A DNA stretch of 55,738 bases, taken from an uncultured Dehalococcoidia bacterium (GTDB lineage Bacteria > Chloroflexota > Dehalococcoidia > SZUA-161). The notes under the pieces were generated by a model. It saw nothing but the letters and a program-made list of their open reading frames with translations, searched no databases and had not been told where the DNA came from. Position 1 is the first letter of the stretch; every line of letters begins with the position of its first letter. The stretch covers positions 1 to 55,738 of the forward strand of contig CAZGDV010000004.1 in NCBI GenBank assembly GCA_964524995.1, in the 5' to 3' direction. Shown in pieces: positions 16,413-51,621 of the stretch. The position numbers were made by a program, and so were the translations under genes.

Positions 16413-16419
16413 GGAGACG

Positions 16420-30036: not shown

Positions 30037-30120
30037 TTACCGAGTTCTCACCGGTTTCTTAGTATCGTTTAATGCCGAACCGCGTCTGTTAATCGGCCTC
30101 TTATCGGCCCACTCTAGACT
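30037..30120 (+). promoter_or_regulatory. 4+2 array of 11-bp direct repeats plus -10 box (copy 2)
   Basis: ttaccgagttc/tcaccggtttc/ttagtatcgtt/taatgccgaac, 8-nt gap, ttaatcggcct/cttatcggccc, TAGACT at 30115 (offset 78). Confidence 0.8.
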
Positions 30121-30240
30121 TGGGACAGGTCTGCATACGAGTGATGGATGGAGCCACTCGGGACTTCGGTACAGCCGTTCACTTCGTGTGCGAAGCGCAA
30201 ATACTACAGAGGCAACTTTCTGAGAGAATGAGGGTGTGAA

Positions 30241-31200: not shown

Positions 31201-31331
31201 CGGAGGCCGAGGAGCGGGGCGGCTCACTTCGAGAAAGCAGGAGCGGCGGAGTGAGACTCAAACGGCACGGAGAGGGATCGAAGCCTTAGGCATGGCTCCA
31301 GGCGCCCGCCGGTCAATAGTCCTAGGCATGA

Positions 31332-31469
31332 GACATTCTCGGAGCGCTTCCGCCGAATGTCCTCTCCTTTCCCACCAATGGCTTGTCCTCCGAGTCCGAA
31401 GGGATCGGCTCGGGGGACAAGCCCCTAGGCCACCCGACGACCTGGGCCCTTTCCCGAGGCAGAGTCGTC
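31332..31469 (+). other. Cluster of three GC-rich stem-loops between the surface-protein and GT-C genes
   Basis: GACATTC..CGGA-GCGCT-TCCG..GAATGTC (31332-31361); ~19-bp stem 31380-31423; GACGAC/GTCGTC stem 31436-31469; no U-tract. Confidence 0.6.
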
Positions 31470-31499
31470 CCTTGGGCTTCAAGGTCTGGTCCATGTGAG

Positions 31500-32969: not shown

Positions 32970-34300
32970 AGGAAAGTGCGATTACGCCTATCAAATTTCG
33001 GACAAGTTCACCCGCTGCGCGGCTGATATCTCAGGAACGGTTCCTTCTTGTAGCTGCAGCTGTCGGCTATGCATTCGGCTACCTGTACCTCGTCTATATC
33101 GGCCGTGAGCTGGGCCCTCAGGACTTCGGCACATTCGGCTCTCTGTTCGCTGTCTTCTACATCGCTTGTCATATGGGACAGGCTGTCAGACAGGCCATCG
33201 CCCGGAGAGTATCCGAAGTCAATGCTAGGGTGGGACGCGAAGCGGCCCTGTCGACATACTCCCGGCTGGCATTCAAGCTAGGTCTTCTGTGCACAATCCC
33301 CACCGCGGCGGCAATAGCCGGATCCCACCATATCGGATCGTTCTTCCATGTCAGTCACACCGGCCCAGTGATCCTCTTGGGACTGTCCATTTCTATAGCC
33401 TTGATCCTTGACGTGCTGCTGGGATTGCTGCAGGGAATGCAGAGGTTCATGGCACTTGGGGTCAGCGGGTTTCTAGTCGGCCAGGGGTCCAAACTGGTGA
33501 TTGCGGCCCTCTTTCTCTGGGCCGGCTGGGGCCTGTCTGGGGCTGTCGGTGTTCTCCTGGCGTCGACGGCACTGGCTGCAGTCGTCGGACTGGCACTTGT
33601 TCGAAAAGACCTGCGAGGAGCACTTCGAACGCCCTCTTATAGCGATTCCGGTGTAACCGCAGTCCTGCTCCCCTCCACGTTCCTGGTCCTTTTCCTGGCC
33701 ATCCCGACCAGCGCCGACGTCATGCTCGTCTCGCACTTCTTCGACAGCAATGACGCCGGGGTCTACAATGCTGCCGCCACTCTCGGGAAGGTGGTTATCT
33801 TTCTGCCGATGGCCGTCTCGTTCGTCCTGCTGCCGAAAGCAGCGGAGAGCCATGCGCTGGGATTGAGTTCGAGGAAACAGCTGGCAAGGAGTCTAGTGCT
33901 GGCGGGTGCGCTGTCGGGTGGGGCCGCACTGATATGCTGGGCACTGCCCGATATGGTTGTGGGCATGTTCTTCGGTCAGGCCTACGTTGGGGCACAACAG
34001 ATCTGCGGCCTGTATGCGGCCGCCATGCTGCTCGTTTCGCTGAACTGCGTTCTGATGCACTATGGCCTGGCGACTCACAACCTTGCCTTGATGCTCTGGG
34101 CAGACACGATCAGCATCGCACAGGTCGTGGCGATTGCCATGCACCATGACTCACTGCTTCAGACCGTCATGGTGCTCCTTATCGGCAATGCCGTTCTGTT
34201 CGGGTCCAGCTTGCCATTAGCGCTCGTGCTCGAAGGGAAAGGAGTTGGTAAACCCCGTGAGGCAGAACCCAGTCCCGCCGAAGCTACTGTTGCACGCTGA
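32867..34300 (+). CDS. Oligosaccharide/polysaccharide flippase (Wzx/MOP-like)
   Basis: GR.LGP..FG.F..L motif, about 12 TM helices, D..LV.HFF....AG.Y.AA..LGK...F.P; start codon unresolved. Confidence 0.85.
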   Translation: MVEGKRDKNRVHVGRCEQRGPLQNTEQHVSSPRLKESAITPIKFRTSSPAARLISQERFLLVAAAVGYAFGYLYLVYIGRELGPQDFGTFGSLFAVFYIACHMGQAVRQAIARRVSEVNARVGREAALSTYSRLAFKLGLLCTIPTAAAIAGSHHIGSFFHVSHTGPVILLGLSISIALILDVLLGLLQGMQRFMALGVSGFLVGQGSKLVIAALFLWAGWGLSGAVGVLLASTALAAVVGLALVRKDLRGALRTPSYSDSGVTAVLLPSTFLVLFLAIPTSADVMLVSHFFDSNDAGVYNAAATLGKVVIFLPMAVSFVLLPKAAESHALGLSSRKQLARSLVLAGALSGGAALICWALPDMVVGMFFGQAYVGAQQICGLYAAAMLLVSLNCVLMHYGLATHNLALMLWADTISIAQVVAIAMHHDSLLQTVMVLLIGNAVLFGSSLPLALVLEGKGVGKPREAEPSPAEATVAR

Positions 34301-34316
34301 AACGGAGGTGCCACAG

Positions 34317-34904
34317 GTGGGGCCCCTTGGCAGCGATACCATGCCACCGAGGAGGCAACCGGCGAGCGCTGTATTCCTGGACAGAGACGGCACGATAATG
34401 CGGGACGTGCACTACTGCCGCGATGTGAGGAATGTCGAGATACTGCCTGGTGTCGCACAGGGAATCAAGTTGCTCAACGACAGCGGGTTCAGGGTGGTTG
34501 TGGCAACGAACCAGTCCGGCATCGGCCGTGGTCTTCTCGATGAAGAGGTACTGAGGAGAATACACCAGCGCATGCTGCTGCGGCTGCTCTGGGAGGGTGC
34601 CATAGTCGATGCGATCTACCACTGCCCTCATGGTCCAGACGATAGCTGCGAATGCAGGAAGCCGAGGGCAGGGCTCCTCCGGCGGGCGGCGCAGGACCTA
34701 GACCTGGATCTCGAGAGGTCGTTCATGGTCGGCGACAGCCTGAGGGACATCGAGGCCGGGCGGGAGGCCGGTTGCCGAACGGCGATCGTGTGTTCCGACC
34801 CATACGCCTGGGAGGACCAGGGGGCGAGACCCGACTTTATCGGACACAGTCTCCTCGATGTGGCCGTGTGGATCATAGGGGCCAGGGTAGCGGGCTCAGC
34901 CTGA
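34317..34904 (+). CDS. gmhB: D,D-heptose 1,7-bisphosphate phosphatase (HAD IIIA)
   Basis: AVFLDRDGTI, VATNQSGIGRG, YHCPH....C.CRKP, SFMVGD...DIEAG..AG; GTG 34317 after GGAGG. Confidence 0.92.
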   Translation: MGPLGSDTMPPRRQPASAVFLDRDGTIMRDVHYCRDVRNVEILPGVAQGIKLLNDSGFRVVVATNQSGIGRGLLDEEVLRRIHQRMLLRLLWEGAIVDAIYHCPHGPDDSCECRKPRAGLLRRAAQDLDLDLERSFMVGDSLRDIEAGREAGCRTAIVCSDPYAWEDQGARPDFIGHSLLDVAVWIIGARVAGSA

Positions 34905-35511: not shown

Positions 35512-38500
35512 TCACCACCCCAGCGAAACGTGATAGGGCATGAACCCATAAACGTTGAACGATATCTCCCCGAAGACATGTCCCAACGGCTTGTCAGCGA
35601 CCGACATCTCGCTCTCGCCGACCTGCACGTGTGTATAAGCGAAGTACGGTACAGGGTGCTGATAGTACGGATACACGTAGGAGTACACCTCACCCAGCTC
35701 CAGTTCCATATCGCGGAACGCCTCTCCGGTATTGTCGGCGCGTTTCTCGACAAGCTCTCCATTGAGGATCACATAGAAGACACCATGATCCCTGCCTACG
35801 ACGTAATGATTCATCCGCGTCTCCGTGGGCAGCGGCCGGCTGCAGAACACGACTTGCTCGCTTGTCCCCTCTCGGTGTCCCAGTTCGAGGCGAGGATATC
35901 CGGCTTGAGGAGAGTCCGCCCCCACTCCATAGAGTAATCGCAGGAACCATCCCTCCGGGTTCTCGCGTGTCGCCGAAGTGAAGCCGAACATCTCCAGCGG
36001 CTCGCCAGGCCAACCAGTCGGCATGAGCCCGAAGCGCACACTGAAGTCATCGGGATTAGCTGTAGCAGCTGGCGGCGCTACTTCGACAACCCAGGAGCTG
36101 AGAGCACTCTCGCCCTCGACGCTCTGCCACCAGCCGTCGGCCACCTCCATCGCCACGGGACCGGCAGAAACCGGCAGTGAGTCCTCATCCCAGCCCTGAA
36201 ACGTTGGGTTCTCCAACAGATTGCCCGGTCGCGACAACGTCGTCATGAGAGTCGGGCTCTTGATCTGCACTGAGCAATCACGATCCAGCACCACGCTCAA
36301 AGTCAGGAAGTCGACGCCATCCTCGGGCACCGTAGCGGCAAGGCTCATGAGGTGCCAGTTGCCATCGCCAGGATGGAAATCGGACCAGGCCCCACCTTCG
36401 CGATCCCATTCCATGCTCAGACGTACCGCCTTACCTGCATCGGCCCTCAGCATAGCCGAGAGCGTCGCCGTGTGTCCTATCAACGAGTCCGGATTCGGCA
36501 CGTTACAGACCAAGTAGCTCTCGTCGTCGTGTGAGTACTCCGCCAATGCAATCGTCTCGCCGGACTGCTCGACTACCCGGCTCACCGCCATCTCAGATTC
36601 GCCACGCAGGTCGATGAGCCAGCCGTCAGCCCACATATCGCCAGCATCTGTGAAAGGGCCTCCCCCAGCCGACCAGCGTTTCAAATCGCTGTTGGGTAAC
36701 AGGTTCCCCGTGTTCGATGTGACCTCACGGAAGTCCAGCTCGGACACCCACGCCAGAGTGGTCCTGGTGAACGCCAGCCCAACTCGTACAGCCTTTGCAT
36801 CCTGGGGTATGGCGATGGTGACCTCCCGACACTCGAGTTCCTCGGCAGCTGTGAAGAAGTCTCCCATCACGTACCCGCCTACATCGCTCCATATGAACGG
36901 CGCAACCGCTTCACAAAGCGCGGCCCTGGCCGTGACATTCAGAGTCACCAAGCGTCCCGCCAGCTCGCTCGCCTGGTCGGAGAGGTCCTGATAGAACTCC
37001 CCATTGCCTCCCCTGCCAGCGAACTCGATACGGGGCATGCTCCTCATGGGGGCCTGCTCTATTATCGGACCCTCGCGGAGGACATGAGTCGCCTCAGAGA
37101 GGTTTTTCGTCACGGCCTGGCTGCTGAGGAAGAGGTCGGGAATAATATCCGCGCCCCACGCCAGCTTCTCGTGCGAGGGATACGTGGAAGCCGAAACGAA
37201 CAACCGTGCGCCCGCGTTCTCGGGCTCGGCTACGAACTCCCTGGCGGCGTAGTAGACGCCATTGGTGTCCGCGCGGGCGCTCGCGACCTCCTGAGCTCCG
37301 GTCATCGTCCGGCCCATACTGAGCACCACCAGACAGCCGATCGCCAGTACTATTGCCACCTTGCGGAAGCGGCCCAAGCCCGGGTCGTTCTTGCCCGCCA
37401 AGCCTGCGAGGTCGGGGCGAAAACGTTGGGCAAGCAGTATGGCGAGCAGAGACACCACCGTCAGCGTAGGAATATAGGCATACCTTGACTGCGAGATCGC
37501 GTACGAAGTCGGTCTTACCAGAAGGAGCAGGAAGCTAAACGCCAGGCCCCCGAGCGCAACCAGCAATACCAGTGACCTTCTGCCACTGGGCGGTACGCGG
37601 AGCTGGAGAAGAAGCGTGACGACAGCGATCACCGCCACCGTGTTCCCTATCACGAGCCCGATTGCGGTCCCCGATGTCGGCGACAGCGAAGGCCATGTGA
37701 TCGGCACGAAGTAGACCATGTCATCGACAACGATTTCCGACGAGTAGACGGTGTTGTGTAGCAAGGCAGAGGAACCGAAATGAATGATGGTGCCCCAGAT
37801 AGCGCGCAGTATGTTCCCCGAGCTAAGGAGCTCGCCGGGCATCGACCTGGGGTCGAGGATCGCGAAAACGCCGAACGCAAGGAGGAAAACAGCGTAGACG
37901 CCGATTGTCAGGATGGCTGACCTCCGGACTGCATCGCCCATGGTAGCCCGATTGTGCCGCCATAGGACAAGGGTACCGGCGAACAGAAGCAGCGGGAATA
38001 CGACCCCAGCTTCGGTGAAGAACATCTGTATGAAGATGAAGAGGTAGGACAGATACAGCAAGGCCGGTCTCGAACTGCGCTGCCATTCCAGCAGGAACAA
38101 GACGGCCAGCAGTATGCAGGAGACCTGCAGAAGCACGTAAGTATGCACTGTCCATGCTATCGCGTCCAGATGCGTCGCGGCCGTGAGGAAGAGGGCAGCG
38201 ATGAACAACGAGAACAGAGCGCTTGGCGCCAGGCGTCGCACGAGCAGGAAGAGCAAGGTGGCATTGAGCGCATGCACTCCGATTGTGGTCAGGTGGTACA
38301 TGAGGAAGTTCGTGCCGAAGACCTTCCACTGCAGATAGACAACCGGGAAGGCGAGCGGCTGAAACCGCTTGTCGGACCCGAAGAACTCGAAGAAGAGGGA
38401 TCTCTTCAGATCTGCCATGCTCATGCCACCCTCACGGAAATTCGACATGAACATTAGATGGTCAGCACGAGGCAGATCGCTGAGCAAGGCAGCGTACAGT

Positions 38501-38658
38501 ACGGCGGTGAGCCCAAAGAACCCCAGGTAGACCCACAAAGGTGGCCAACCTACAAGAGGCCTGGCCCGGAGCCACACAAGTGCTGAGCTGCATGCCGTGC
38601 GTGCAGCCGCGAGACGGTGCGGGCTTCTTCGCTTCTTCCTTGATTTCTTGCGGCTCAC
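35512..38658 (-). CDS. GT-C (TMTC/PMT-like) membrane glycosyltransferase fused to CBM4/9-like and ConA-like extracellular modules (1048 aa)
   Basis: RFQPL....Y..YH......H..N..LLF.L...LF.......AIAW, E.....P TMTC-like pattern over about 11 TM helices; C-terminal NLL.N..F motifs and a Y..LNGEL beta-rich segment. Confidence 0.72.
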   Translation of the reverse strand: MSRKKSRKKRRSPHRLAAARTACSSALVWLRARPLVGWPPLWVYLGFFGLTAVLYAALLSDLPRADHLMFMSNFREGGMSMADLKRSLFFEFFGSDKRFQPLAFPVVYLQWKVFGTNFLMYHLTTIGVHALNATLLFLLVRRLAPSALFSLFIAALFLTAATHLDAIAWTVHTYVLLQVSCILLAVLFLLEWQRSSRPALLYLSYLFIFIQMFFTEAGVVFPLLLFAGTLVLWRHNRATMGDAVRRSAILTIGVYAVFLLAFGVFAILDPRSMPGELLSSGNILRAIWGTIIHFGSSALLHNTVYSSEIVVDDMVYFVPITWPSLSPTSGTAIGLVIGNTVAVIAVVTLLLQLRVPPSGRRSLVLLVALGGLAFSFLLLLVRPTSYAISQSRYAYIPTLTVVSLLAILLAQRFRPDLAGLAGKNDPGLGRFRKVAIVLAIGCLVVLSMGRTMTGAQEVASARADTNGVYYAAREFVAEPENAGARLFVSASTYPSHEKLAWGADIIPDLFLSSQAVTKNLSEATHVLREGPIIEQAPMRSMPRIEFAGRGGNGEFYQDLSDQASELAGRLVTLNVTARAALCEAVAPFIWSDVGGYVMGDFFTAAEELECREVTIAIPQDAKAVRVGLAFTRTTLAWVSELDFREVTSNTGNLLPNSDLKRWSAGGGPFTDAGDMWADGWLIDLRGESEMAVSRVVEQSGETIALAEYSHDDESYLVCNVPNPDSLIGHTATLSAMLRADAGKAVRLSMEWDREGGAWSDFHPGDGNWHLMSLAATVPEDGVDFLTLSVVLDRDCSVQIKSPTLMTTLSRPGNLLENPTFQGWDEDSLPVSAGPVAMEVADGWWQSVEGESALSSWVVEVAPPAATANPDDFSVRFGLMPTGWPGEPLEMFGFTSATRENPEGWFLRLLYGVGADSPQAGYPRLELGHREGTSEQVVFCSRPLPTETRMNHYVVGRDHGVFYVILNGELVEKRADNTGEAFRDMELELGEVYSYVYPYYQHPVPYFAYTHVQVGESEMSVADKPLGHVFGEISFNVYGFMPYHVSLGW

Positions 38659-38664
38659 TGCAGA

Positions 38665-41600
38665 TCACCAACCATCTGGACTCGGCAAGTCGCTGGGCGG
38701 ATAGGTATTCTCCACGCTATAGAGCAAGTAGTCGACTTCGGCATGCATGTTCTCACCCTCGACGGCACTGAGGTCACCAAGGTAGATGCCCTTGGTCGAA
38801 ACCCCGTTCAGCAGGCCTATCGCCCTGGGGAAGCCATCAATGTATACGTGGAGAATATCGTCTCTCATTGTGAGACGATAGGTGTGGAACGCATCCGTCG
38901 TATCCATTCGATGGATGGACTTCTCCTGATTCTGGTCACGTATCGAGACTCGGTCCGGGTAGAACGTCAGTTTGGCCTCGCGCTCCCCATCCTGTACGGA
39001 GAGGCAGGAGCCCTGATGGCCGTGCGAAGCGGCCTGGACTACCTTGAGCCTGACCTCAACGGTCACCCCCCGAAGGTTGTCGAGGTCATCTTCCTGGCAC
39101 TCGAGCCATGCTGTGTCACTCCAGCTGCTCTTGAGAGTCAAGACGCCGCCGGACGTACGCCTGATGTCGAAGTTGCCGCGCACGATCCACCTATCGTCTT
39201 GCTGCCAGGGCGGTACGCTCATATCTGCGTATCCGGTCCACCCCGAAGGCAGTACTGAGTCAGCACCCGATTCCACGATTTCCGGACCCAGCAGCGAGCC
39301 ATCAGGGGCGTATGCACCGGTCGATGAGTAAGCCAGGTAATCAACCAAGGCATGGATGTTCTCACCCGCTTCCTGGCTCAGGTCACCCAGCAGCAAGCTT
39401 CTGCCGGCGATCCGGTTTCCCAACGTAGCTTTGGCAGCCAGTTCGGAATCCACGTATACACGCAGTACGTCCTCGATGACGGCCAGACGGTAGACGTGGA
39501 ACGCATCAGTGGTGTCCATATGGAACGTCGCCCTCTCGTCATTCTGGTCGCGGATCGAGATACGGTCGGGATAGAAGGTGATCTTGGCCTCATGTGTACC
39601 GTCCTGCACGTAGAAGCAAGCGCCCTGATAGCCATCGTACGATGCATCAACGATCCTGAGCGTCAGTTCCACGGTGGTGCCCACGGAGTTGTCCAACCGG
39701 TCGTCCCTGCACTCGATGTAGCCAATATCGCTGGCCGACGTCCTGACGACCAGCACCCCATCGGAAGCTTGATTCACTTCGAAGCTGCCGCCGGCAGACC
39801 AATGTTCGTCTACAGTCTCAGGGGAAACGTCCATCTCCATGACACAGTTCCACTCCGACGGTGGCTCCGTCCCAGCGTCGGATGGCTCAACCGCTCCTAC
39901 ACCATCTGGCTCCTGCACGGACGGCGAGGTTGATATACCCGGCACCGGCGTCCCATCGGGCGACAGCGCCCCGTCTACGGTGTAAGCTACATAGTCGACC
40001 GTCACGCGCATGTTCTCCCCATCAACCGGGCTGAGGTCTCCGAACACGATCCCCTTTGCGTCCGATCTATTGCTGAGCACAGCGCTTACAGCCAGCTCCC
40101 CATCCACGTACAGATGAGCGGTGTCCCCTCTGACGGCCATGCGATACAGATGGAAACCGCCGGTCGTGTCCATGGCGTACGTCTCTCTCAAGTCATCACC
40201 GTCGCTGATCGATACTCCGTCGGGATAGAGGACCATCTTCGCCTCGCGCAGACCGTCCCGGACGGCGACACAAGCTCGCTGACAGCTCTGGCCCAAGGTC
40301 TCCACTCTGATCCTCGCCTCGACTGTGGCTCCAATCGAGTTGTCGAAACGATCATCGGTGTGGCTGTAGTACGCAGTGTTGGCCCCGGAGGTCGCGATCG
40401 TCAGCATGCCCTCGGCGACACCGGCCTCACCAAGAATGCCCTCGGCCTGCCAAGGAGACACCTGCTCCGTATTCGGTAGAGCACGCATGTCGCTGATCTT
40501 GGTTACATGCGGCATCCCGTCAACTGCCCCAACCGCCCCAGTCGGAGGCTCCAAAGGAACCAGGTCGCTCGTGGGACTATCTGTGACAGACGCAGTGTAC
40601 GCCACACGTTTGACTTGGGCACAGACATTGACCTTGTCGTCGGGGCAAACATCACCCCACACGATTGCCCTGACGGAAGAGTAGTCCTTGAGAACGACAT
40701 CCGCTACGAGTTCATCATCAACGAAAGCCTTGAGCGCATTCCTGATCAGAGCGAGTCTGTAGGTGTGGAAGCCGCCGGTTGTGTCCATCTCATGGATGGT
40801 ACTGTCCTCAGTACCGTCCCGGATCACGATTCGGTCAGGCTCGACGATCAGGTTCCCGTCTCGGGTGCCATCCTGGATGGAGAACAGGAAGCTGCTCCGC
40901 TCCACATTCGGCCCGTCCAGCATCCTCAGCGTGATCTCCGCTGACGAGCCTATGCTGTTGTCCAGCCCGCCATCAAAGTGAACGAAGTAGCCCACGTTGT
41001 TGCCATTGGTCTGCAGTGTCACCACATCATCCGCACAATCCAGTACGTTGAACTCACCACCGAGCGTCCAGATGCCATTCGGGTCGGCGCGGCCCAGTAT
41101 GGCCGGGGCGCTTGAGCTGTGCCATTTCGACTCCGTCGACGCGCTGGCGGCCAGTGTGGCCGGTCGAGGAGCGGGTGGCTCAGCCGCGTCGGTGCTATAG
41201 ATTATGTAGTCGATTTCCGCATGTATGTTCTCACCGGGCTCCCTGCTCAAGTCTCCGAAGGCAATGTCCTTCAACGTTACTACCTTCTTCAATTGGACTG
41301 TCTCCAGCAGACTCCCGTCGACGTAGAGTGCGAGTTGCCCATTGACGATGCACAGGCGGTAGGTATGGAAGCCGTCGCCGGTAGACATCGAGTGTGTATA
41401 TACCTCGTCATTCTGGTCCCGTAGCGTGATACGATCGGGGTAGAACGTGAGTTTGCCCTCCCTGCTACCATCCTGCAGTGTGAAACAAGCACCCTGGTAG
41501 CCCGTCGTCGCAGCGCCGACAAGCTTCATCCTCACCTCTGCAGTCACGCCTCTGCGGTCATCGAACCTCGGCTCGGAAACCTTGTAGTGGCCTGGGTTGA

Positions 41601-44598
41601 GCCCGCTCGTCTTGATAGTGAGTGTGCCGCCATGTGCCTCCGAGAATTCGAAGGAGCCGACAGACTGCCAAGGCATGTTCGCCTCTTGATCCGGGGCAAC
41701 AGTCATGTCGCTGAAGACGACCCAGTCCGGTATGAGTGGACGTTGGCTGGCGGCGACTATCTGTTCAAGGCCCAGCGTTGCGAGTTCACTGTGGTCCAGC
41801 CCATCCTCGTAGACCGAAAACACCTCAGCGGCGGATAATGCTTGGTTGAACACGGCGAGACTGTCCACGCTCCCCAGGAATTGATCGTCCTCCCCCCAGA
41901 AGGATCTCCCAACCTGCGCAAAGTCGATGAATTGCCCGGAAAACTGCATCGTGTCGACCTGATATGACACATCGAGCACCCCATTAAGGTAGGCCGACAT
42001 GGTACCCGCTGCCTCGTCAAAGACGACCGTTACGTGTGTCCAGTCATCGGCCGGCACCTCACCGAGCGAAGAGCGGCGATTCTCTCCAGCCTGGACCATC
42101 AGCCTGCCGCAGCCACCGTCCTCGAACCCGATGGCGAACATATCACCCTCGCCCCCCGGAGATACAAACGGGCTGAGCTGCCCCTCATCGTCGATTATGA
42201 GTTTCCCTGCATGACCGTCGTCGTCAAGCGCGAGGATGGTGGCGTCCCGATCAGTCTCTTGTGGCCGCACCCAGAAGCTAACCGTGAGTTCGTCGCTGAG
42301 GTAGAGGCCAAAGACGTTATTTCGTCCCCTGGCAGTCGCTTGGCCTTCGCCGCCCTCGAACGCCACTGCGGAGTCTGTGCTTCCCTCAGACCTGAGAGAG
42401 TCGTCCAACTGGAGTGAGAGATGGCGGTTCCATCCGGACAGGTCCCTCGTCAGTGAGCCGGAGTCATCGCCCATCGTGTAGTAGGCCTCGAGCGAGGCCA
42501 TGAAGGAGGTAGGCTCGTCCAGGTGAACGAGAAGGTAGTCCGAGTTGATGTCTTCGGTGACGAAGTAGGTCGTCAGATGGTGCTGTAGCGGTCGTGCTTT
42601 ACGGCTCTTGTCGACCAGGGCGTAGTAGTGTATCTGGTCGGCTGACACCACCCCCTCAGCAATCAGCCCCTCCCGCAGTTCCCTCAGCCTCGCGAGCCGG
42701 TAGTTGAAGTTCTTGATCCCCACTGCGTACTCGATTTTCTCTCCGTCTCTCACATCCTCATAGTGGTACTCATGAAGGAAAGCGTCGTCAGGCAACCCGT
42801 CGACGATCAACTCCCAGTCTGACACAAAGAGAGCATACTGCGGCCTGATTAGAGAATGGGCAGTCTGCCAGTCTCCGTTCTCTATCGGGACCACTTTCGT
42901 TTCCTGCAGATACGAACCGAGCACGAATCCCCGCCGCCCCATGTACTCATCGTGCATAGGGAATGTCTCAGCCCCGTTCTGCCACTCATTATTCAGGTTG
43001 TAGAACACGATGTCGCCATAAGAAGTCATCTCCCCGACCTCGCTGGCGACTGCGAACCCCTCGGCAAGGGCATCTCGCGAGACGTGAACACCCCACGTCC
43101 TCTCGGGACTGATCTCATTGGGGTACTCGCCGAGATAGGAGGTTGTGTTAGCCAGGAAGGCGACTACAGGAATGATGACTATCAGACCCGTCACGCCGAA
43201 CTTGAACATGCTCTTCTCGAAGATACCGGCGCCAGTGGCGTCGTGCCGAGACTGCCCCGCAAGATGACGCCGGAAGGAACCGAAGGCGTTTGTCCAGAAG
43301 AGGGCAATTGCGAGGCCAAGAGCGAGCCCCACGAACGTAAGGGCATGCAGCGGATGGTATACCTCCAGAGCTTTGGGCATGACGAGGCGCCAGATGAGAA
43401 AGCTTGCCGCGAGCCACAAGAGCACATTGCTCGGGCTGAAGCCACGTTCGAACCTCAGCATGCCCCTGGGATTGTCGTAGTTCTCCAGGAACTTGACCAG
43501 TACCACCATTGCCAACAGTGCCCAGATGCCCAGTCCGAATGCCTCGGAGTAGTAGCGGTTCACGGTGCCGAATATCTCCGTGGGAAAGAATCCTGGTCTC
43601 ATGGCGGCGCCAGTCCCTAGCGTCCTGTTCCAGACTACGCTCCAGGTGTCGTGCCAGGCAGCGGAGAAGCCTCCCACCGACCACATCAACTGCAGGAAAT
43701 GGAGCCCGAAGGCGGACACGGGCGCGGCGATGAACAGCAGGATCCTCTTTAATGGAAATGGTTTCGCACGACTGAGCACGTAGTACCCGACGATGAATAC
43801 CTGCAGGAAGAGGCTGTACTCGAAGGAGTTGCACGCCTGTAGGAAGACGAGAAGCCATACCCCTGCCAAGGCCAGGCGTCTGAGACGTGGCCTCCGGAGC
43901 ACCCTCTCGTCACGATGCGCGGCGGCGAAGAGGGCCATCGCGGCTGATACGAGGAATATGTCATATGTCTGCGGGGACAGGCCGTCCATGTGCTCCATGA
44001 AGACCACGGACAAGCCTGCGACTGCCGCTCCAATAAGTGCGGCCGGCCTGCTGAAGAAGTAGCTGAAGAACCTGTAGAACAGAAGCAGTGCGCAAGCGCT
44101 CAGGAACACCGAGAAGGCTTCGCACGTATAGCGGCCCCCACCCAGCGCCAGTATGACCCCATTGACCATTCCATACAGTGGAGGCGAATGTGTGTAATAC
44201 TCATCGAGGAAGTAGGCAGAGCCAACCACCCCGGGGTGATAGTAGGTGAGGAACCCATGCTCTATGAAGCCCTCGTCAGCGAAATGGCGGGCCGCCGACA
44301 TGGTCTGGGCATCGCCCGGTGCCCAGCCACTCCATCTCAGCTCATACCCTGCCCGCACCAGGCCGAAGACCAGGATGAAAAGCGCGAAGCTCACCACCAG
44401 CACGTTGCAGACGCGCTTGCTGTTCGCTGCCACCAACGTAAGCCCTTTGAGTCCCACGTCTCCCCGCCATGGAACAGGCCACCCTCTGGCGACGGTTCGC
44501 TCAAAGAAGGATGCGGTGAGGCTGGCAAACACCACCGAAGGTAGTATCAGCCTCCGTACAAGACCCCTGCGAAGCTCTATGGGCATGGGTGAGAGCAT
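38665..44598 (-). CDS. Giant GT-C (ArnT/PMT-like) membrane protein fused to a LamG domain and five tandem ConA/lectin-like repeats (1977 aa)
   Basis: N-terminal GDAQT..AARHF...YYTHSPPL loop plus many TM helices; LamG pattern LTVSFWVRP...WTHVTVVFD...YLNG..F.GS.D...VFN.ALS..EV; five ~190-aa repeats. Confidence 0.78.
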   Translation of the reverse strand: MLSPMPIELRRGLVRRLILPSVVFASLTASFFERTVARGWPVPWRGDVGLKGLTLVAANSKRVCNVLVVSFALFILVFGLVRAGYELRWSGWAPGDAQTMSAARHFADEGFIEHGFLTYYHPGVVGSAYFLDEYYTHSPPLYGMVNGVILALGGGRYTCEAFSVFLSACALLLFYRFFSYFFSRPAALIGAAVAGLSVVFMEHMDGLSPQTYDIFLVSAAMALFAAAHRDERVLRRPRLRRLALAGVWLLVFLQACNSFEYSLFLQVFIVGYYVLSRAKPFPLKRILLFIAAPVSAFGLHFLQLMWSVGGFSAAWHDTWSVVWNRTLGTGAAMRPGFFPTEIFGTVNRYYSEAFGLGIWALLAMVVLVKFLENYDNPRGMLRFERGFSPSNVLLWLAASFLIWRLVMPKALEVYHPLHALTFVGLALGLAIALFWTNAFGSFRRHLAGQSRHDATGAGIFEKSMFKFGVTGLIVIIPVVAFLANTTSYLGEYPNEISPERTWGVHVSRDALAEGFAVASEVGEMTSYGDIVFYNLNNEWQNGAETFPMHDEYMGRRGFVLGSYLQETKVVPIENGDWQTAHSLIRPQYALFVSDWELIVDGLPDDAFLHEYHYEDVRDGEKIEYAVGIKNFNYRLARLRELREGLIAEGVVSADQIHYYALVDKSRKARPLQHHLTTYFVTEDINSDYLLVHLDEPTSFMASLEAYYTMGDDSGSLTRDLSGWNRHLSLQLDDSLRSEGSTDSAVAFEGGEGQATARGRNNVFGLYLSDELTVSFWVRPQETDRDATILALDDDGHAGKLIIDDEGQLSPFVSPGGEGDMFAIGFEDGGCGRLMVQAGENRRSSLGEVPADDWTHVTVVFDEAAGTMSAYLNGVLDVSYQVDTMQFSGQFIDFAQVGRSFWGEDDQFLGSVDSLAVFNQALSAAEVFSVYEDGLDHSELATLGLEQIVAASQRPLIPDWVVFSDMTVAPDQEANMPWQSVGSFEFSEAHGGTLTIKTSGLNPGHYKVSEPRFDDRRGVTAEVRMKLVGAATTGYQGACFTLQDGSREGKLTFYPDRITLRDQNDEVYTHSMSTGDGFHTYRLCIVNGQLALYVDGSLLETVQLKKVVTLKDIAFGDLSREPGENIHAEIDYIIYSTDAAEPPAPRPATLAASASTESKWHSSSAPAILGRADPNGIWTLGGEFNVLDCADDVVTLQTNGNNVGYFVHFDGGLDNSIGSSAEITLRMLDGPNVERSSFLFSIQDGTRDGNLIVEPDRIVIRDGTEDSTIHEMDTTGGFHTYRLALIRNALKAFVDDELVADVVLKDYSSVRAIVWGDVCPDDKVNVCAQVKRVAYTASVTDSPTSDLVPLEPPTGAVGAVDGMPHVTKISDMRALPNTEQVSPWQAEGILGEAGVAEGMLTIATSGANTAYYSHTDDRFDNSIGATVEARIRVETLGQSCQRACVAVRDGLREAKMVLYPDGVSISDGDDLRETYAMDTTGGFHLYRMAVRGDTAHLYVDGELAVSAVLSNRSDAKGIVFGDLSPVDGENMRVTVDYVAYTVDGALSPDGTPVPGISTSPSVQEPDGVGAVEPSDAGTEPPSEWNCVMEMDVSPETVDEHWSAGGSFEVNQASDGVLVVRTSASDIGYIECRDDRLDNSVGTTVELTLRIVDASYDGYQGACFYVQDGTHEAKITFYPDRISIRDQNDERATFHMDTTDAFHVYRLAVIEDVLRVYVDSELAAKATLGNRIAGRSLLLGDLSQEAGENIHALVDYLAYSSTGAYAPDGSLLGPEIVESGADSVLPSGWTGYADMSVPPWQQDDRWIVRGNFDIRRTSGGVLTLKSSWSDTAWLECQEDDLDNLRGVTVEVRLKVVQAASHGHQGSCLSVQDGEREAKLTFYPDRVSIRDQNQEKSIHRMDTTDAFHTYRLTMRDDILHVYIDGFPRAIGLLNGVSTKGIYLGDLSAVEGENMHAEVDYLLYSVENTYPPSDLPSPDGW
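38690..41727 (-). repeat. Five tandem ~190-aa repeats (approximate bounds)
   Basis: Shared consensus DM...P...W...G....T...G.T.E.R......QG.C..VQDG.RE.K..FYPDR..IRD....MDT...FH.YRL......YVD......GDLS...GEN....DY..YS; DNA similarity visible, e.g. 38926-38980 vs 39540-39591 vs 41409-41460. Confidence 0.9.
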
Positions 44599-44671: not shown

Positions 44672-45283
44672 TCAAATACGTGCTGCCAGGAACTCGTCTA
44701 GTTCTGCGCTGACAACGACATCATACAGACGAAAGAAGTCGTCCATGGCATTCCGAAGCTCTGCCGCTATAACTCGTCCCGTCTCCGTATAGAATCTGTC
44801 GTAGAAGAAGCCGATGTAGTTTCTTGCTTTCCTCATCGCTCCTTGGACTTGCTTGCCGTCGTACACCATGCGATAGCCGAACACCCGGGCGAAGCCGAGC
44901 GGCCCGACCGACTGGAGCTTGTCGGCGTCCCAGAGTACCTCGGCCTCCCTGGTGAGCTTGGGCAAATCGTTGGCATGCTGAGATATCGCGTAGCAGACCT
45001 GCTCGATGAAGGCCTCAGGCGCCCGTATGCTCTCCAGGAAGGCTCCGGCCTCCCGAGCCCCGATCGCGGCATGCTCTGCGCCCACGCCTTTGGCTATGTC
45101 ATGGAGATACGCCGAGATGACGCTTATCTCTTCATCAGCACCTTCCCTTCTCGCCAGCCACCTCGATATCTCCACCGTCAGCTCTACGTGCTCCATAGTG
45201 TGATCGAAATCCTGGTCTTTGTGCCGCTCGCGAGCGTACTCGCGGATTCTCTGGACTTGCTCCAGGCTAAGAACGAACGGCAT
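44672..45283 (-). CDS. HD-domain phosphohydrolase
   Basis: H..EHV...AYLHDIAK...H...GA...DADKL motifs; ATG 45283 after GGAGG (the track extension to 45454 overlaps the upstream gene). Confidence 0.88.
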   Translation of the reverse strand: MPFVLSLEQVQRIREYARERHKDQDFDHTMEHVELTVEISRWLARREGADEEISVISAYLHDIAKGVGAEHAAIGAREAGAFLESIRAPEAFIEQVCYAISQHANDLPKLTREAEVLWDADKLQSVGPLGFARVFGYRMVYDGKQVQGAMRKARNYIGFFYDRFYTETGRVIAAELRNAMDDFFRLYDVVVSAELDEFLAARI

Positions 45284-46757
45284 CGGCCTCCCTCTGTGCG
45301 AATTCTCGGCCCTTTTCGGGCGAATGCCTGAACACATCCTGGCGCAGACTCCGCGCGTATATCTTGAGGGACTCAGAAAACGTCGTCTTCGTGACATAGA
45401 TCTTGCGCCGGAAGGCATACATCTTCGCAACGTGATACGAGAGCGTGAAGCCAATGTTCATGGGAAGGCGTAGAAGGAGCCTGGTGATCAGATGGCGGGT
45501 CCACGGGAATACCACTGCCACCGGCCCGAGCACCGCGAGATTGCGCTGCAGGTTCCTCTCTTTAGCGGTGAAACACGTCAAAGGTGTCTCGAACTGATAT
45601 GACGTGTGCATCCTCTCATACTCAGGAGAGTACGCGCCCATGGCGATGGTCTTGTCGCCCAGTTCAGTTCCGGGATAGGGATGGAACTGCAGGAACTCGG
45701 CCCAGTCCACGCGACATTGCAGAGACAGGTTCAAGGACTCCAGGTCATTGGCAAACGTTGTGCCCGGCAGCCCGATGATGCAGTTGGTGAACGTGTAGAT
45801 GCCGTACTTCTCGCAGAGCCGGTGCGAGTCGACAATCTGCTCGTTAGTCATCCTCCTGTTGAGCAGACTCTCCCGGATTTGCTGATTGCCGGCCTCGATG
45901 GACATGCTGATGGTCCGGCAACCGGCCTCCTTCATCAGCTTGACTATGTCCTCCGTCAGAAGATCACAGCGTGTCAGGGCGAAGAACGGCAGACCAATCC
46001 TCCTCCTGTACTTCCTGGAGAATTCCTCTAGCCACTCGTCAGCCCGGAAGGCGAAGACATCATCGTAGAACTTCACTGTGGACAGGGGCCACTTCGCCAT
46101 GACCCTCTGTATGTCCTCGACCACATGATCGACGGAGTGCCGTCGAACGACCTTGCCCTTGCCCTTGTAGATCTCGCGCCATCTTGTATTGAAGCAGTAT
46201 GAACACCGATAAGGGCAGCCCCGGGACGTTATGAACGACTTCAAGAGCGATTGGCCCATCATTGGCGTAGCACTGTACAGCAGATCGTAGTCCGGGAACG
46301 GCAGGCTGTCGAGGTCCTCAACCAGATTGCGTACAGTCGAAGAGTCGTGGTTGCGAGTGACGATGTTGGGGATCCCATCGACCTCGCGACCGGAGTCCAG
46401 GGCGCGGAGAACATCCACGATAGCGCCTTCGCCCTCACCCATGCAGATCGCATCCAGAGTCGTGTGGATCAGATCCCCGGGGTAGAAGGTGGGATGCGGC
46501 CCACCCATGATTGTGAAGACGTCCGGGAACTCCTGCTTGATCCGGTTGTTGGCCCTCAAGTAATGCTTCGCTTCCCCGGTGGACGAACTGTACGCTACGA
46601 CGTCCGGCCTGACCTCGGCGACACTGTCAACAGGATCGCTCCGGTTCAACTCACACAGAAACGTCTCGTGCCCTTCTTTCCTGGCCATGGCCGAGATGAC
46701 GGCTGGACCCAGGGGAGCTATGAAGTTCTCGCTCTTGAAGACGAAGAGCACCCTCAT
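45267..46757 (-). CDS. Cobalamin-binding radical SAM enzyme (class B type)
   Basis: N-terminal B12-binding fold (PDVVAYS, IMGGPHPT), TSRGCPYRCSYC CxxxCxxC motif, FYDD.F, SIEAG, FHPYPGT. Confidence 0.92.
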   Translation of the reverse strand: MRVLFVFKSENFIAPLGPAVISAMARKEGHETFLCELNRSDPVDSVAEVRPDVVAYSSSTGEAKHYLRANNRIKQEFPDVFTIMGGPHPTFYPGDLIHTTLDAICMGEGEGAIVDVLRALDSGREVDGIPNIVTRNHDSSTVRNLVEDLDSLPFPDYDLLYSATPMMGQSLLKSFITSRGCPYRCSYCFNTRWREIYKGKGKVVRRHSVDHVVEDIQRVMAKWPLSTVKFYDDVFAFRADEWLEEFSRKYRRRIGLPFFALTRCDLLTEDIVKLMKEAGCRTISMSIEAGNQQIRESLLNRRMTNEQIVDSHRLCEKYGIYTFTNCIIGLPGTTFANDLESLNLSLQCRVDWAEFLQFHPYPGTELGDKTIAMGAYSPEYERMHTSYQFETPLTCFTAKERNLQRNLAVLGPVAVVFPWTRHLITRLLLRLPMNIGFTLSYHVAKMYAFRRKIYVTKTTFSESLKIYARSLRQDVFRHSPEKGREFAQREADAVRS

Positions 46758-47695
46758 CTGGACACCTGCTCCGCAAGAGCGCCGACCCAGGAAGCAAGCC
46801 GGTTGGTGATATTGTCGACGCTCAGTCCGATAGTTGCTCGCAGGTACTCCCGGCTTCCATACTCACGAACGAACTGATCCGGCATGCCAACCCGCTTGAA
46901 CCGGCAATTCAGGCCCCTCTCGGCAATTAGCTCCGCTATCGCACTGCCTATTCCCCCCGTGATGAAGTGCTCCTCGAGCGTTATGACGTTTTTCGACCCG
47001 TTGATAACGTCCGAGAGCAGTTCGGCGTTGAGAGGCTTGATCCTGTAGAGATCGACGACGCCCACACTGATGGACTGTTCAGACAGGAGCTTGGCTGCAT
47101 CGAGAGCCGTCGCCACCATACGGCCGGTGGCAATGATGCAGAGGTCGGTGCCCGTACTCAGTACGCTCGCGCCGGCAGACAAGTCTTCGACGGTGTTTGT
47201 GTGGATGAGCGGCTCGCCGGTCCGATCGAGTCTTACGTAGACGGGGCCGGGCGTCTCGTAGGCCATGAATGCGAATGTGGCAGCCGTTCTATTGTCCGAA
47301 GGGCTCAGGACGGTCATTCCAGGGAGCTGCCGCATCATGGCGATGTCCTCGGTTCCATGATGGGTAGGCCCGAGGATAGAGTAGTCCATTCCCGCGCCGA
47401 CGCCTATCATCTTGACGGGCAAGTTCTGACAACACACGTCCACCCTGACCTGCTCATAGCAGCGCATCGTGACAAATGGCACTATCGCGTAGGTATAGAC
47501 TATCTTGCCACTCATCGCTAGGCCCGCCGCGACTCCTATCATGTTCTCCTCGGCGATACCGACGTTTATGCAGCGCTGTGGAAGGTCCCTCCTCAGGGCA
47601 TCGAGCACCAGAGCCCCCGTATCAGAGGTCAGCACGACGACCCGCTCGTCTCGCGCCACGGTCTCGTATAGTGAAACAAAGAAAGCATCTCTCAT
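46754..47695 (-). CDS. Transketolase-like protein, C-terminal (Pyr + C) subunit
   Basis: NVGIAEENM.G.AAGLA..G, R.YEQVR.D, GPTHH..ED, GP.YVRL, LEEH...GG.GS; ATGA overlaps on both sides. Confidence 0.93.
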   Translation of the reverse strand: MRDAFFVSLYETVARDERVVVLTSDTGALVLDALRRDLPQRCINVGIAEENMIGVAAGLAMSGKIVYTYAIVPFVTMRCYEQVRVDVCCQNLPVKMIGVGAGMDYSILGPTHHGTEDIAMMRQLPGMTVLSPSDNRTAATFAFMAYETPGPVYVRLDRTGEPLIHTNTVEDLSAGASVLSTGTDLCIIATGRMVATALDAAKLLSEQSISVGVVDLYRIKPLNAELLSDVINGSKNVITLEEHFITGGIGSAIAELIAERGLNCRFKRVGMPDQFVREYGSREYLRATIGLSVDNITNRLASWVGALAEQVSR

Positions 47696-48513
47696 CTCGC
47701 CAACTCCTTTCTAGCCTGCTCCAACTCCTCCCTGTTCGGCGTCCTGTAATGCCAGATCGGCTTGCTCTCCATGAAGGAAACGCCCTTCCCCTTCGTGGTT
47801 CGGGCAAGCACGGCAAGCGGCTTTCCGGAACTGCGGTCCCGGATGTCGGCAAGCGCCGCCTGAATGCTATCGAATGAATGTCCATCTGCGGTCCGCACTT
47901 CCCACCCGAAGGCCTCGAACTTCGCCTCGAGGGGCTCCAAAGCCAGTGCCTCCTCTGTGAAGTCTATGGCCTGGAGAGTGTTGCGGTCGATGATGGCCAC
48001 GAGATTATCAAGACGTTGGTGAGCAGCAAACATCACGGCCTCCCAAACGGAGCCTTCCTGGCACTCACCATCGCCAAGAAGGGCAACAGTTATGTAGTCG
48101 TCGCCATCCATCTTGGCGCACAGGGCCATTCCTGCCGCTATCGAGAGACCGTGTCCCAGCGAGCCGGTGAATGCTTCCACACCCGGCACGTTCGACTCGG
48201 CGTGAGCGCCTAACCGGCTTCCCAGCTTACAGAACGACCGCAGTTCGCCCACCGGGAAGAAGCCGAGGTCCGCCAGTGCCGGGTAAAGGGCCAGACAGGC
48301 TTGACCCTTGCTGAGCACGAACCTGTCACGACCCTTCCATTGCTCATCCTCGGGATTGAACCGCAGGACTCCACCATGGTATAGGGCAACGAGCAATTCA
48401 GTGCACGAGAACGATGGAGCCAGATGCGCACCGGCAAGCCCCACAGTCATCTCCACGATCTCATTGCGTATCCAGTTTGCCTTCCTCTCCAATTCTGCCG
48501 CTTCTAACATCAC
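47692..48513 (-). CDS. Transketolase-like protein, N-terminal (PP) subunit
   Basis: RDRFVLSKG, TGSLGHGL, ThDP motif GDGE.QEGS.WEA...IDRN, T.KGKGVSFME...WHY. Confidence 0.93.
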   Translation of the reverse strand: MMLEAAELERKANWIRNEIVEMTVGLAGAHLAPSFSCTELLVALYHGGVLRFNPEDEQWKGRDRFVLSKGQACLALYPALADLGFFPVGELRSFCKLGSRLGAHAESNVPGVEAFTGSLGHGLSIAAGMALCAKMDGDDYITVALLGDGECQEGSVWEAVMFAAHQRLDNLVAIIDRNTLQAIDFTEEALALEPLEAKFEAFGWEVRTADGHSFDSIQAALADIRDRSSGKPLAVLARTTKGKGVSFMESKPIWHYRTPNREELEQARKELAR

Positions 48514-48538
48514 GACTATCCCCTTTCATTCAAAATGG

Positions 48539-49336
48539 CTATGCGCTCATGGCGACTATCTTGTCAGCTCGGAGTACACGGACCCGAACGAATAAGCGAC
48601 CAAGATCATATGCCGCGGACAGCACTGACCCCAGGGTCAGTATCTTGGACCGGCCGTGCATCCTCTTGCCAAGCCGCACCGGCACCTCGGCGAATGTGAA
48701 ACCTGCACGTGCCCCCCTTACCAGGCATTCCGTCTGATACGTGAAACCTGTGGCCACGGGCCTGACCGCGTCGAGAACCTGGCGTCTATAGATGACATTC
48801 CCCGTTGTATAGCTGAACGTCGTGCCGAACAGCAGGTTCACTACATGCAGATAGAGCTTCGAGACGAAGCGCCGCTGTCGGCTGCGCACCTCTCTATTCG
48901 TCACGTACGGCACTATTATGTCAACTTGATCGAGAAGCGGCAGGTACCTCAGCAACTCCTCCGGCTCGTTCTCGGCATCCCCGGGGAACCAGGTAATTGC
49001 CGCCTTCGAGGAAGCTCGAATGCCGTCCAAGAAGCAGGTACCTATGCCCGCCGGTTTGCTGTGCTCCAGCACGTGAATCCGGGGCTCGCTCTTGGCAAAG
49101 GTGTTTGCGATGGCACCGGTCTTGTCGGTGCTACCATCATTCACCACGATGATCTCCCAATCCACTCCGTCCCGGCCAAGGACGCCGATCAGCCCGTCCA
49201 GTGCCAGGGGCAGGTTGCTTTCTTCGTTGAGCGCCGGTACTATCACGGTCAACGACTTCGAAGGTGGCGGGACCGGATTCGTGTCCTCACCTGTGGTGAA
49301 GAGCAGAACTGCTGTGCTATCGGCCTGGCTCTGCAT
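48539..49336 (-). CDS. GT2 glycosyltransferase, polyprenol-phosphate glycosyltransferase (DPM1/Ppm1-like)
   Basis: VIVPALNEE.NL, EIIVVNDGSTD.T, FPGDA (DXD variant), GF.YQTE.L.R, F.EVPV...R..G.SK. Confidence 0.87.
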   Translation of the reverse strand: MQSQADSTAVLLFTTGEDTNPVPPPSKSLTVIVPALNEESNLPLALDGLIGVLGRDGVDWEIIVVNDGSTDKTGAIANTFAKSEPRIHVLEHSKPAGIGTCFLDGIRASSKAAITWFPGDAENEPEELLRYLPLLDQVDIIVPYVTNREVRSRQRRFVSKLYLHVVNLLFGTTFSYTTGNVIYRRQVLDAVRPVATGFTYQTECLVRGARAGFTFAEVPVRLGKRMHGRSKILTLGSVLSAAYDLGRLFVRVRVLRADKIVAMSA

Positions 49337-49355
49337 GGTCGGTGTTCATTCTCCT

Positions 49356-50486: not shown

Positions 50487-50527
50487 ACTGTCGTTCGCCT
50501 CACGCACATGCGGCACGCTCCGAGCGC

Positions 50528-51538: not shown

Positions 51539-51621
51539 CCGCCTTCCTCTCGTTCTCACTCGTTGCTTCATTAACTGTTGACCGTATGCGCAAGCCGTAA
51601 GTCTCAACCGCGCTTGTGCGC

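Follow-up and report, generated by a model that had tools for sequence, protein, structure and literature searches.

Glycosyltransferases with lectin-type tails

Glycosyltransferases of the GT-C fold class build or decorate bacterial surface glycans, and how they find their acceptors is understood for few of them (Emb proteins, AftD, ORF12). ORF12, a GT136 enzyme of Citrobacter youngae O1, carries, at its C-terminus, a carbohydrate-binding module (CBM) that binds the unmodified polymer (PMC11127046). AftD has three CBMs for which acceptor binding has been argued, as has a gain in affinity and specificity through multivalency (AftD preprint); acceptor-glycan binding by CBMs borne on GT-C enzymes has been shown or argued for ORF12, EmbC and AftD (PMC11127046; AftD preprint). 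Here we describe a protein encoded in a stretch of 55,738 nucleotides from an uncultured Dehalococcoidia bacterium (contig CAZGDV010000004.1, "the window"). An open reading frame (ORF) at 38665–44598 on the reverse strand, read from an ATG at 44598 up to and including the stop codon, codes for 1977 amino acids (aa) arranged as a GT-C domain, a middle region, a Laminin_G_3 (LamG) domain and five lectin-like repeats. An earlier note on this DNA, made from the sequence alone, had named GT-Cs with CBMs as a precedent, and AftD, EmbC and ORF12/GT136 bear this out: the design as such is already known, and the window protein is an unusually long example of it. Its lectin-type tail is the longest on a GT-C found in our searches. 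A full-length search of 5.8 billion proteins returned only the protein itself, no second GT-C with six lectin-type modules, five of them of an unnamed family, was found among the sequences searched, and the architecture proved neither common nor characterised there. With a probability of roughly 0.6, we consider the protein to be an extracytoplasmic GT-C transferase of an envelope-glycan pathway using lipid-linked sugars, whose multivalent tail binds acceptor or product glycan.

Like the window protein, AftD joins a GT-C core to an extensive extracytoplasmic portion that consists of several beta-sandwich modules. However, the CBMs of AftD (three, plus a structural beta-sandwich) are tightly packed and followed by more transmembrane helices, whereas the window protein has six C-terminal modules, five of one family on flexible linkers; the two proteins show no sequence similarity, and the GT-C subfamily of the window protein is PMT_2/ArnT-related. 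ORF12 differs in having one CBM compared with six modules.

In the Gtr, ArnC/ArnT and CsbB/YfhO systems, a glycosyltransferase of family 2 (GT2) makes a polyprenyl-phosphate-linked sugar, a flippase moves the sugar, and a GT-C enzyme transfers it outside. The ORF15/ORF12 system follows the same logic from GT2 via flippase to GT-C (PMC11127046), and the operon of the window protein contains a GT2 and a GT-C. It departs from the three-component systems in its candidate flippase, which is Wzx-like and not of the GtrA or MATE type, in a richer sugar pathway including a thiamine diphosphate (ThDP) enzyme, a B12-binding radical S-adenosylmethionine (SAM) protein and an HD hydrolase, and in the presence of two or three GT-C-like proteins. 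The nearest sequence neighbourhood is that of ArnT and PMT_2 (GT83/GT39-like): the ArnT structures 5f15 and 5ezm match in fold (TM-score about 0.5), and an Asp follows the first transmembrane helix (TM1). ArnT, an enzyme acting on lipid A, differs from the window protein in having no more than a small periplasmic domain, and the window protein lacks a match to PF13231.

The GT-C domain, delimited by homologues, AlphaFold and Foldseek, comprises aa 59–570 (42889–44424, reverse strand). Hydropathy indicated about 9–12 hydrophobic segments between aa 63 and 482, and the AlphaFold model (pLDDT 84.1, pTM 0.87) consists of about 13 transmembrane helices and a small C-terminal periplasmic alpha/beta part. 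When the model was compared with the PDB using Foldseek, the best 30 matches were all GT-C enzymes (probability 1.00, TM-score 0.44–0.51), including STT3, AglB, PglB, ArnT, ALG9/ALG12, Pmt4, AftB, PimE and AftD, the core of the latter at ranks 27–28. The polytopic, GT-C-like N-terminus that had been noticed in the sequence is borne out by these results, and a GT-C fold of the domain is, judged from the model, near certain. Structure prediction, which had been proposed as a check, was run on this domain and on one repeat and gave confident models for both. Of 49 aligned homologues, 39 conserve Asp96, which lies in the first external loop directly after TM1 (helix 50–83); the catalytic acid of GT-C enzymes sits directly after TM1 as Asp96 does here, and this residue is likely to be the catalytic one. 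Other residues conserved in the family are retained as well, namely Y135-T136-H137, P139, W248, S258, A292-P293, H300, Q303 and D317.

An exhaustive phmmer search over 1.84 billion cluster representatives yielded 169 relatives of the GT-C domain, nearly all of them 500–600 aa long and spanning only aa ~60–570 of the query; most members of the family carry no tail. The Pfam family PMT_2 (PF13231) was matched at E ≤ 0.01 by 20 of 50 aligned relatives (best E 3e-10). The window protein does not reach its gathering score, aa 1–500 being without a match even at E ≤ 10, and aa 1–760 went unrecognised by Pfam (E ≤ 10), NCBIfam and a PDB sequence search. PDB sequences gave no match to a profile of the GT-C family, an NCBIfam scan of the entire protein gave no match, and its only, weak match in a PDB sequence search lay in the LamG region. 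Sequence comparison places the domain in an outlying family related to PMT_2 (ArnT/PMT-type); because of the model, the Foldseek matches and the retained conserved residues, it was filed in the GT-C fold superfamily outside PMT_2. Some family members carry classic CBMs at the position of the tail (F5/8 type C, NPCBM, PPC, LamG), and the longest of these CBM-bearing relatives has 982 aa.

The reading frame is unbroken over 5.9 kb, with an even G+C content throughout the ORF, and an identical product, called from a GTG with a length of 1930 aa, is encoded on two contigs (the longest of 81 kb) of one JGI metagenome. This GTG (codon 48; 44455–44457, reverse strand) is more likely than the ATG at 44598 to be the true start, because the sequence GGGGAG lies just upstream of it, the JGI gene call for the ORF begins there (44457), alignments of homologues start at aa 59–74 and aa 1–50 were modelled with pLDDT < 50. 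No Shine-Dalgarno-like sequence accompanies the ATG.

The middle soluble region (aa 571–765; 42304–42888, reverse strand) has no Pfam match even at E ≤ 10 and aligns in part to an independent homologue of 802 aa, P0015. The LamG domain which the earlier note had recognised was confirmed as Laminin_G_3 (PF13385; aa 766–926; 41821–42303, reverse strand) with an E of 7.7e-28 and 98 bits against a cut-off of 27.6; by sequence, it also matches domain 4 of the arabinanase AbnA (PDB 5hon, E 3e-4). P0015 is built as GT-C, spacer and Laminin_G_3. Residues 634–941 of the window protein align to its aa 516–798, and within this range aa 634–760 match the stretch preceding the LamG domain of P0015. Since P0015 shares the junction between GT-C and LamG, this junction must have been inherited and is not an artefact of assembly.

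The repeat family and its occurrence

The five repeats have their FH.YR anchors at aa 1077, 1277, 1482, 1700 and 1904, i.e., a period of 200–218 aa for a domain of about 176 aa. All encoded on the reverse strand, they span aa 965–1142 (repeat 1; 41173–41706; E 2.7e-78 with the hidden Markov model (HMM) of the repeat), aa 1165–1342 (repeat 2; 40573–41106; E 4e-71), aa 1371–1547 (repeat 3; 39958–40488; E 3.4e-73), aa 1589–1765 (repeat 4; 39304–39834; E 1.1e-80) and aa 1793–1968 (repeat 5; 38695–39222; E 1.1e-77), the last being followed by the 9-residue tail SDLPSPDGW. The tandem array of five copies with an FH.YR core is thus as previously described, each copy matching at E 4e-71 or better, and so are the linkers, which are acidic, 22–41 aa long and contain 26–45% Pro/Ser/Thr. 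Pairwise identity of the repeats is 26–46% in a MAFFT alignment and 29–50% when HMM-aligned, repeat 2 being the most divergent copy (26–31% identical to the other four). The 23 columns that are invariant over the five copies include W, G, F-H-x-Y-R and D-G, which are typical core positions of LamG and concanavalin A (ConA)-like domains, and the Thr of an MDTTD loop is nearly invariant across the repeat family. Invariant polar residues are E56, D78, T108, H113, R116 and D129 (repeat numbering).

Residual similarity at the DNA level had been taken as a sign of tandem amplification. Tandem Repeats Finder detected no DNA-level array in the ORF; a seed-and-extend search found a 99-nt block that is 69–77% identical and a 57-nt block that is 67–72% identical in four of the five copies, and codon-aligned DNA identity between repeats is 44–56%. 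The similarity is therefore present in two blocks, but it is modest and its weight had been overstated, and it implies that the duplications are old. The window repeats are no closer to one another than to copies from other organisms (up to 51% identity). The copies did arise by duplication, but the array is, as far as its sequence tells, old and stable and not a recent amplification. Position-by-position orthology between the window repeats and the related array of another locus (L015) was not found, and no specialisation of single repeats is therefore deduced.

Repeat 4, modelled with an alignment of 13 sequences, was predicted by AlphaFold as a 14-strand sandwich with a pLDDT of 91.4. Foldseek returned 404 PDB matches at E ≤ 1e-3, and among the matches listed all are ConA-like. 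Among the top three is the lectin domain by which Vibrio cholerae sialidase (2w68) binds sialic acid (TM-score 0.67–0.69), in agreement with the resemblance to the lectin wings of this enzyme stated in the earlier note; others are botulinum NTNHA/Hc-N, Emp46/47, ERGIC-53, VIP36, AbnA domain 4, CBM66, GH16 and PL7. The best superpositions are those with the sialidase wings and the L-type lectins (Emp46/47, ERGIC-53, VIP36), sugar-binding ConA-like jelly rolls with TM-scores of 0.60–0.69, whereas sequence identity to them is 10–18%, and the likeness is one of predicted fold only. By this confident model of one copy, the repeats are ConA-like jelly rolls.

Neither Pfam nor NCBIfam has a model for the repeat family. 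Searched as pieces against Pfam at E ≤ 10, the membrane domain, the middle region and repeats 1, 2 and 4 gave nothing, and repeat 5 gave only chance-level matches (E 0.09–0.2). The sole contact of the repeats with Laminin_G_3 is that of repeat 3 (E 0.0014, 19 bits, below the cut-off), and repeat 2 shows a faint Pfam GH16 match of 37 residues over its FHTYR...FVDD core. The FH.YR...YVDG signature is a structural core common to sandwiches of the LamG and GH16 types. Profile comparison revealed no relationship of the repeats to the protein's own LamG domain, nor to the tail of the 1048-aa protein encoded next to it. An origin of the repeats as copies of their own LamG domain is ruled out by this absence of profile similarity, and the repeats therefore form a separate family within the same superfamily. 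Their fold, their position and the CBMs on relatives of the GT-C domain make it probable that they bind glycans.

A profile of the five copies, run against the 5.8 billion sequences, finds unrelated metagenome proteins at E 2e-63, which makes the repeat a genuine family rather than a chance resemblance. The family is rare: no more than eight other proteins with the repeat were found by profile searches of these proteins. Among 185,579 species, each represented by one genome, four repeat loci were detected, in metagenome-assembled genomes (MAGs) of Dehalococcoidia, Planctomycetales, Nitrospiraceae and an unclassified bacterium; a metagenome scan added 18 further loci. HMM mapping over the fetched loci, denoted here by L numbers, gave copy numbers of 1, 2, at least 3, 5 and at least 5. 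The searches for homologous architectures and repeat-number variation suggested in the earlier note thus revealed from one to at least five copies across loci.

A different polytopic domain of about 545 aa, designated family X, is the fusion partner of the repeats in L004/L018, L005, L016 and L019. The profile link between family X and the GT-C family of the window is weak (hhalign probability 74%), single-sequence comparison by BLAST found nothing, and family X is therefore not called GT-C with confidence. The 1435-aa protein of L016 and the proteins of L004/L018 and L019 bear the same tandem repeat, in 2 to at least 5 copies, on such polytopic, distantly GT-C-like proteins; like the window protein, they belong to the same cluster type and adjoin a partner of the 1048-aa family, but they have the family X membrane domain and lack the middle region and LamG. 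The five copies of the L016 protein (7790–12097, forward strand) are 52–89% identical, and this array, in contrast to the old window array, appears from these values to be recent and still expanding. The L004 array (5021–8928, forward strand) has at least five copies, near-identical ones included, with a scaffold gap (Ns) inside it. The claim that an array of this length on a GT-C is without precedent therefore stands for the exact architecture, which is unique in the 5.8 billion proteins, but not for the array itself, since in clusters of the same type those of L016 and L004, with at least five copies, sit on membrane proteins that distantly resemble GT-Cs.

L005 has one copy fused to family X and one in a separate adjacent ORF; in L011, a Dehalococcoidia MAG, a single copy ends a 1049-aa protein adjoining a YfhO-like GT-C; and in L003 a repeat copy precedes a DUF2079 membrane protein. 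In L019, a 599-aa stand-alone homologue of the window GT-C domain (E 9e-104) is directly followed by an array gene (4440–7283, forward strand) whose product begins with a lipoprotein signal peptide (…IVGC), after which the repeat alternates with a PKD-like module of about 95 aa in four or more units. The latter module also occurs in the 1049-aa protein of L011. Because L019 encodes the GT-C and the array lipoprotein as separate adjacent genes, the most fitting view of the window protein is that of a GT-C fused to a membrane-tethered array which elsewhere has its own gene. The split and the fused arrangement together provide strong comparative evidence for a partnership of GT-C and array outside the cytoplasmic membrane, and the existence of both forms in nature makes this partnership experimentally tractable.

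An odd number of helices in GT-C enzymes places the C-terminus outside the cell membrane. On the grounds of this topology, of the lipoprotein signal in L019 and of the single N-terminal hydrophobic segment in each of the repeat-bearing proteins of L021, L026 and L029, the tail of the window protein is predicted to lie outside the cytoplasmic membrane. The tail (38668–42888, reverse strand) is strongly acidic, with an isoelectric point (pI) of 4.4 and 14–18% Asp+Glu per domain; the pI of the membrane domain is 8.3.

Gene cluster, proposed pathway and alternatives

The repeat family is almost confined to one conserved type of glycan-synthesis cluster. For the better-conserved copies, the recurring neighbours are a split transketolase-/E1-like ThDP enzyme, one to three B12-binding radical SAM proteins, one or more HD hydrolases, a GT2, an FAD oxidoreductase or DegT aminotransferase, epimerases of the short-chain dehydrogenase/reductase (SDR) type, a Polysacc_synt protein and several large polytopic proteins. 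The repeat domain is thereby a marker of a conserved but uncharacterised cluster for glycan synthesis, which occurs in several lineages without cultured members, Dehalococcoidia included.

In the window, Pfam identified the ThDP enzyme (N and C subunits), a B12-binding radical SAM protein and an HD phosphohydrolase immediately upstream of the GT-C gene (44672–48513, reverse strand); these genes precede the array gene of L016 in the same order, and the same set is found in L004 and L011. A GT2 (48539–49336, reverse strand; Glycos_transf_2, E 8e-23) is a candidate polyprenyl-phosphate sugar synthase. In NCBIfam it comes closest to PgfS, ArnC, AglJ, dolichyl-P-hexose transferase and PpgS, without reaching any of the cut-offs, and its nearest named families are all polyprenyl-phosphate glycosyltransferases. 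The sole flippase candidate in the window is a Wzx-like Polysacc_synt protein (32867–34300, forward strand; PF01943, E 7e-12), of a family also present in L002, L004 and L005; no GtrA-type protein was found. Of the three-component set, the window thus contains the GT2 and the GT-C, with the Wzx-like protein on the opposite strand.

Directly downstream of the GT-C gene lies that of the 1048-aa partner (35512–38658, reverse strand), which has a polytopic N-terminus and a soluble tail of about 590 aa ending in a weak LamG-like segment. It belongs to no Pfam family and is 37–39% identical to a 707-aa protein of L004; homologues of 700–890 aa adjoin the array genes in L004/L018, L005, L015 and L016. 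The membrane domain of this partner is a distant relative of the window GT-C family (hhalign probability 92%, E 5e-7). A further polytopic protein, of 528 aa (31383–32969, forward strand), has no Pfam match and contains in its first loop the sequence DEWWH, recalling GT-C DE motifs; homologues occur in the same cluster in L004 (E 1e-38) and L018 (E 1e-146).

The operon (44672–54883, reverse strand), together with 34245–34904 on the forward strand, comprises a heptose-pathway-like set and a modified-sugar set. The former consists of a SIS/GmhA-like protein, a fusion of cytidylyltransferase and PfkB in the reverse order of HldE, and a GmhB-like HAD protein; the latter of two SDR epimerases/dehydratases, an FAD (DAO) oxidoreductase, the GT2, the ThDP enzyme, the B12-radical SAM protein and the HD protein. 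The core of ThDP enzyme, radical SAM protein, HD protein and GT2 recurs in L004, L011 and L016, which suggests an undescribed modified-sugar pathway.

The proposed mechanism builds on the observed GT-C and ConA-like folds, the conserved neighbourhood, the split and fused arrangements and the variation in copy number. Cytoplasmic enzymes of the operon (heptose-pathway-like proteins, SDRs, FAD oxidoreductase, ThDP enzyme, B12-radical SAM protein, HD hydrolase, methyltransferase) would build an unusual nucleotide sugar, and the ThDP enzyme, the radical SAM protein and the methyltransferase suggest that it may be C-branched or methylated. The adjacent GT2 would load this sugar onto polyprenyl phosphate, and a flippase would carry the lipid-linked sugar across the membrane; a lipid-linked donor is likely in view of the GT2 in the operon and the Wzx-like protein nearby. 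Outside, the GT-C domain would transfer the sugar to a cell-surface polymer, with Asp96 as the presumed catalytic residue, while the acidic tail of about 1400 residues, LamG plus five ConA-like modules on flexible linkers, would act as a multivalent array which captures the acceptor or product polymer and keeps it near the active site. That array and GT-C are functionally linked is indicated by the repeats being either fused to three families of membrane proteins or encoded adjacent to GT-C proteins, and avidity is a plausible role for the number of repeats. The window protein itself would have arisen when a stand-alone GT-C became fused to a membrane-tethered array protein with a gene of its own. 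Should a defined glycan be bound by the repeats, these would represent a new CBM or lectin family and offer a handle for identifying an envelope polymer; if they bind none, the protein is an ordinary, oversized multi-domain glycosyltransferase.

Several points weigh against this proposal. The window protein itself matches no GT-C model of Pfam or NCBIfam, even at E ≤ 10, and its assignment to the GT-C family is transitive and structural. The candidate flippase is of the Wzx/Polysacc_synt type and not a classical GtrA. ConA-like domains mediate protein–protein contacts, too. Finally, five modules on flexible linkers could reach well beyond the periplasm, and surface display therefore fits such a long tail as well as substrate capture does.

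In a much broader reading, to which we give only a small chance, the FH.YR repeat would be a module dedicated to recognition, or serving as the acceptor, in an unrecognised envelope glycan system extending across phyla, with several GT-Cs and an exotic, perhaps heptose-derived sugar modified by ThDP and B12-radical SAM enzymes; the number of modules would tune the building or display of the polymer (chain length, envelope reach), and in the window protein we would have a fused "Rosetta stone" which links enzyme and array.

Of the explanations competing with glycan capture by the tail, the one that survives best, although we regard it as unlikely, is that the array is itself the acceptor, i.e., that a PMT-like GT-C glycosylates its own tail (at the linkers or the MDTTD loop) as well as other array proteins, resulting in a membrane-anchored surface glycoprotein such as a self-glycosylating adhesin, an idea already put forward in the earlier note, or a surface-layer component. 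The matches of relatives to PMT_2, and structural matches to Pmt1/2/4 and oligosaccharyltransferases, which act on proteins, agree with this, as do the Pro/Ser/Thr content of the linkers and the nearly invariant Thr; the repeat domain moreover accompanies the pathway, as might be expected of a substrate dedicated to it, and the array on a separate lipoprotein in L019 looks like a displayed surface protein. However, it would be unusual for a substrate domain to occur on three families of enzyme-like membrane proteins, whereas CBMs common to several enzymes of one polymer are frequent; the repeat fold matches mostly lectins and CBMs, bona fide CBMs occupy the same position in members of the GT-C family, and motifs for cell-wall sorting or for anchoring in an S-layer were not seen.

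A processive polymerase with a molecular ruler, in which the number of modules sets the chain length or the array spans the envelope as a scaffold or conduit, had also been considered from the sequence and appears quite improbable. Emb proteins are GT-C enzymes that polymerise. The copy number of the repeat differs between loci, and arrays are still growing in some lineages, with copies up to 89% identical in L016. On the other hand, flexible linkers of non-uniform length would make a poor rigid ruler, most members of the GT-C family are tail-less, and the other GT-C-like proteins in the cluster suggest several single-step transfers.

We think it very improbable that the repeats are degenerate or active ConA-fold enzymes of the GH16 or PL7 type which remodel the polymer. 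The faint GH16 match on the FHTYR...VDD core of repeat 2 and the presence of GH16 (1byh) and PL7 lyases among the Foldseek matches point in this direction, but the matched segment is the shared structural core and not the catalytic strand, the invariant residues occupy typical LamG/ConA core positions, and a regular-expression scan of aa 927–1977 found neither the GH16 motif ExDxxE nor the PL7 motifs QIH and R-S/T-E-x-R, leaving the tail without the catalytic motifs of either family. That the ORF is an artefact, a chimeric assembly or read-through joining separate GT-C and array genes, is suggested by the separate adjacent genes of L019 and by the breakage of assemblies at repeats, as in L004, but is barely credible given the unbroken frame with its even G+C content, the same protein on two contigs, repeats too divergent at the DNA level for mis-assembly, the independent joining of GT-C, middle region and LamG in P0015, and the absence, at the junction, of a signal peptide or start site that would belong to the tail.

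Other genes of the window

On the reverse strand at 30037–31227, an Arg/Cys-rich ORF of 396 aa looks spurious; opposite to it, a 319-aa gene without a Pfam match was called by JGI (30241–31200, forward strand). In the region 5015–17865 (forward strand), genes of two PAS histidine kinases of the hybrid type, both with receiver domains, precede a set resembling those of type IV pili or type II secretion. Its members are an ATPase like PilB, a PilC-like platform protein, a prepilin bearing an N-methylation motif, and proteins similar to PilM/N/O; they identify the organism as a bacterium, and a secretin was not seen in the window. The ORF at 18079–27477 (forward strand) codes for 3132 aa, shows by eye an N-terminal PAS-like run and has hydrophobic segments near aa 2240–2710; its product is probably a giant signalling protein.

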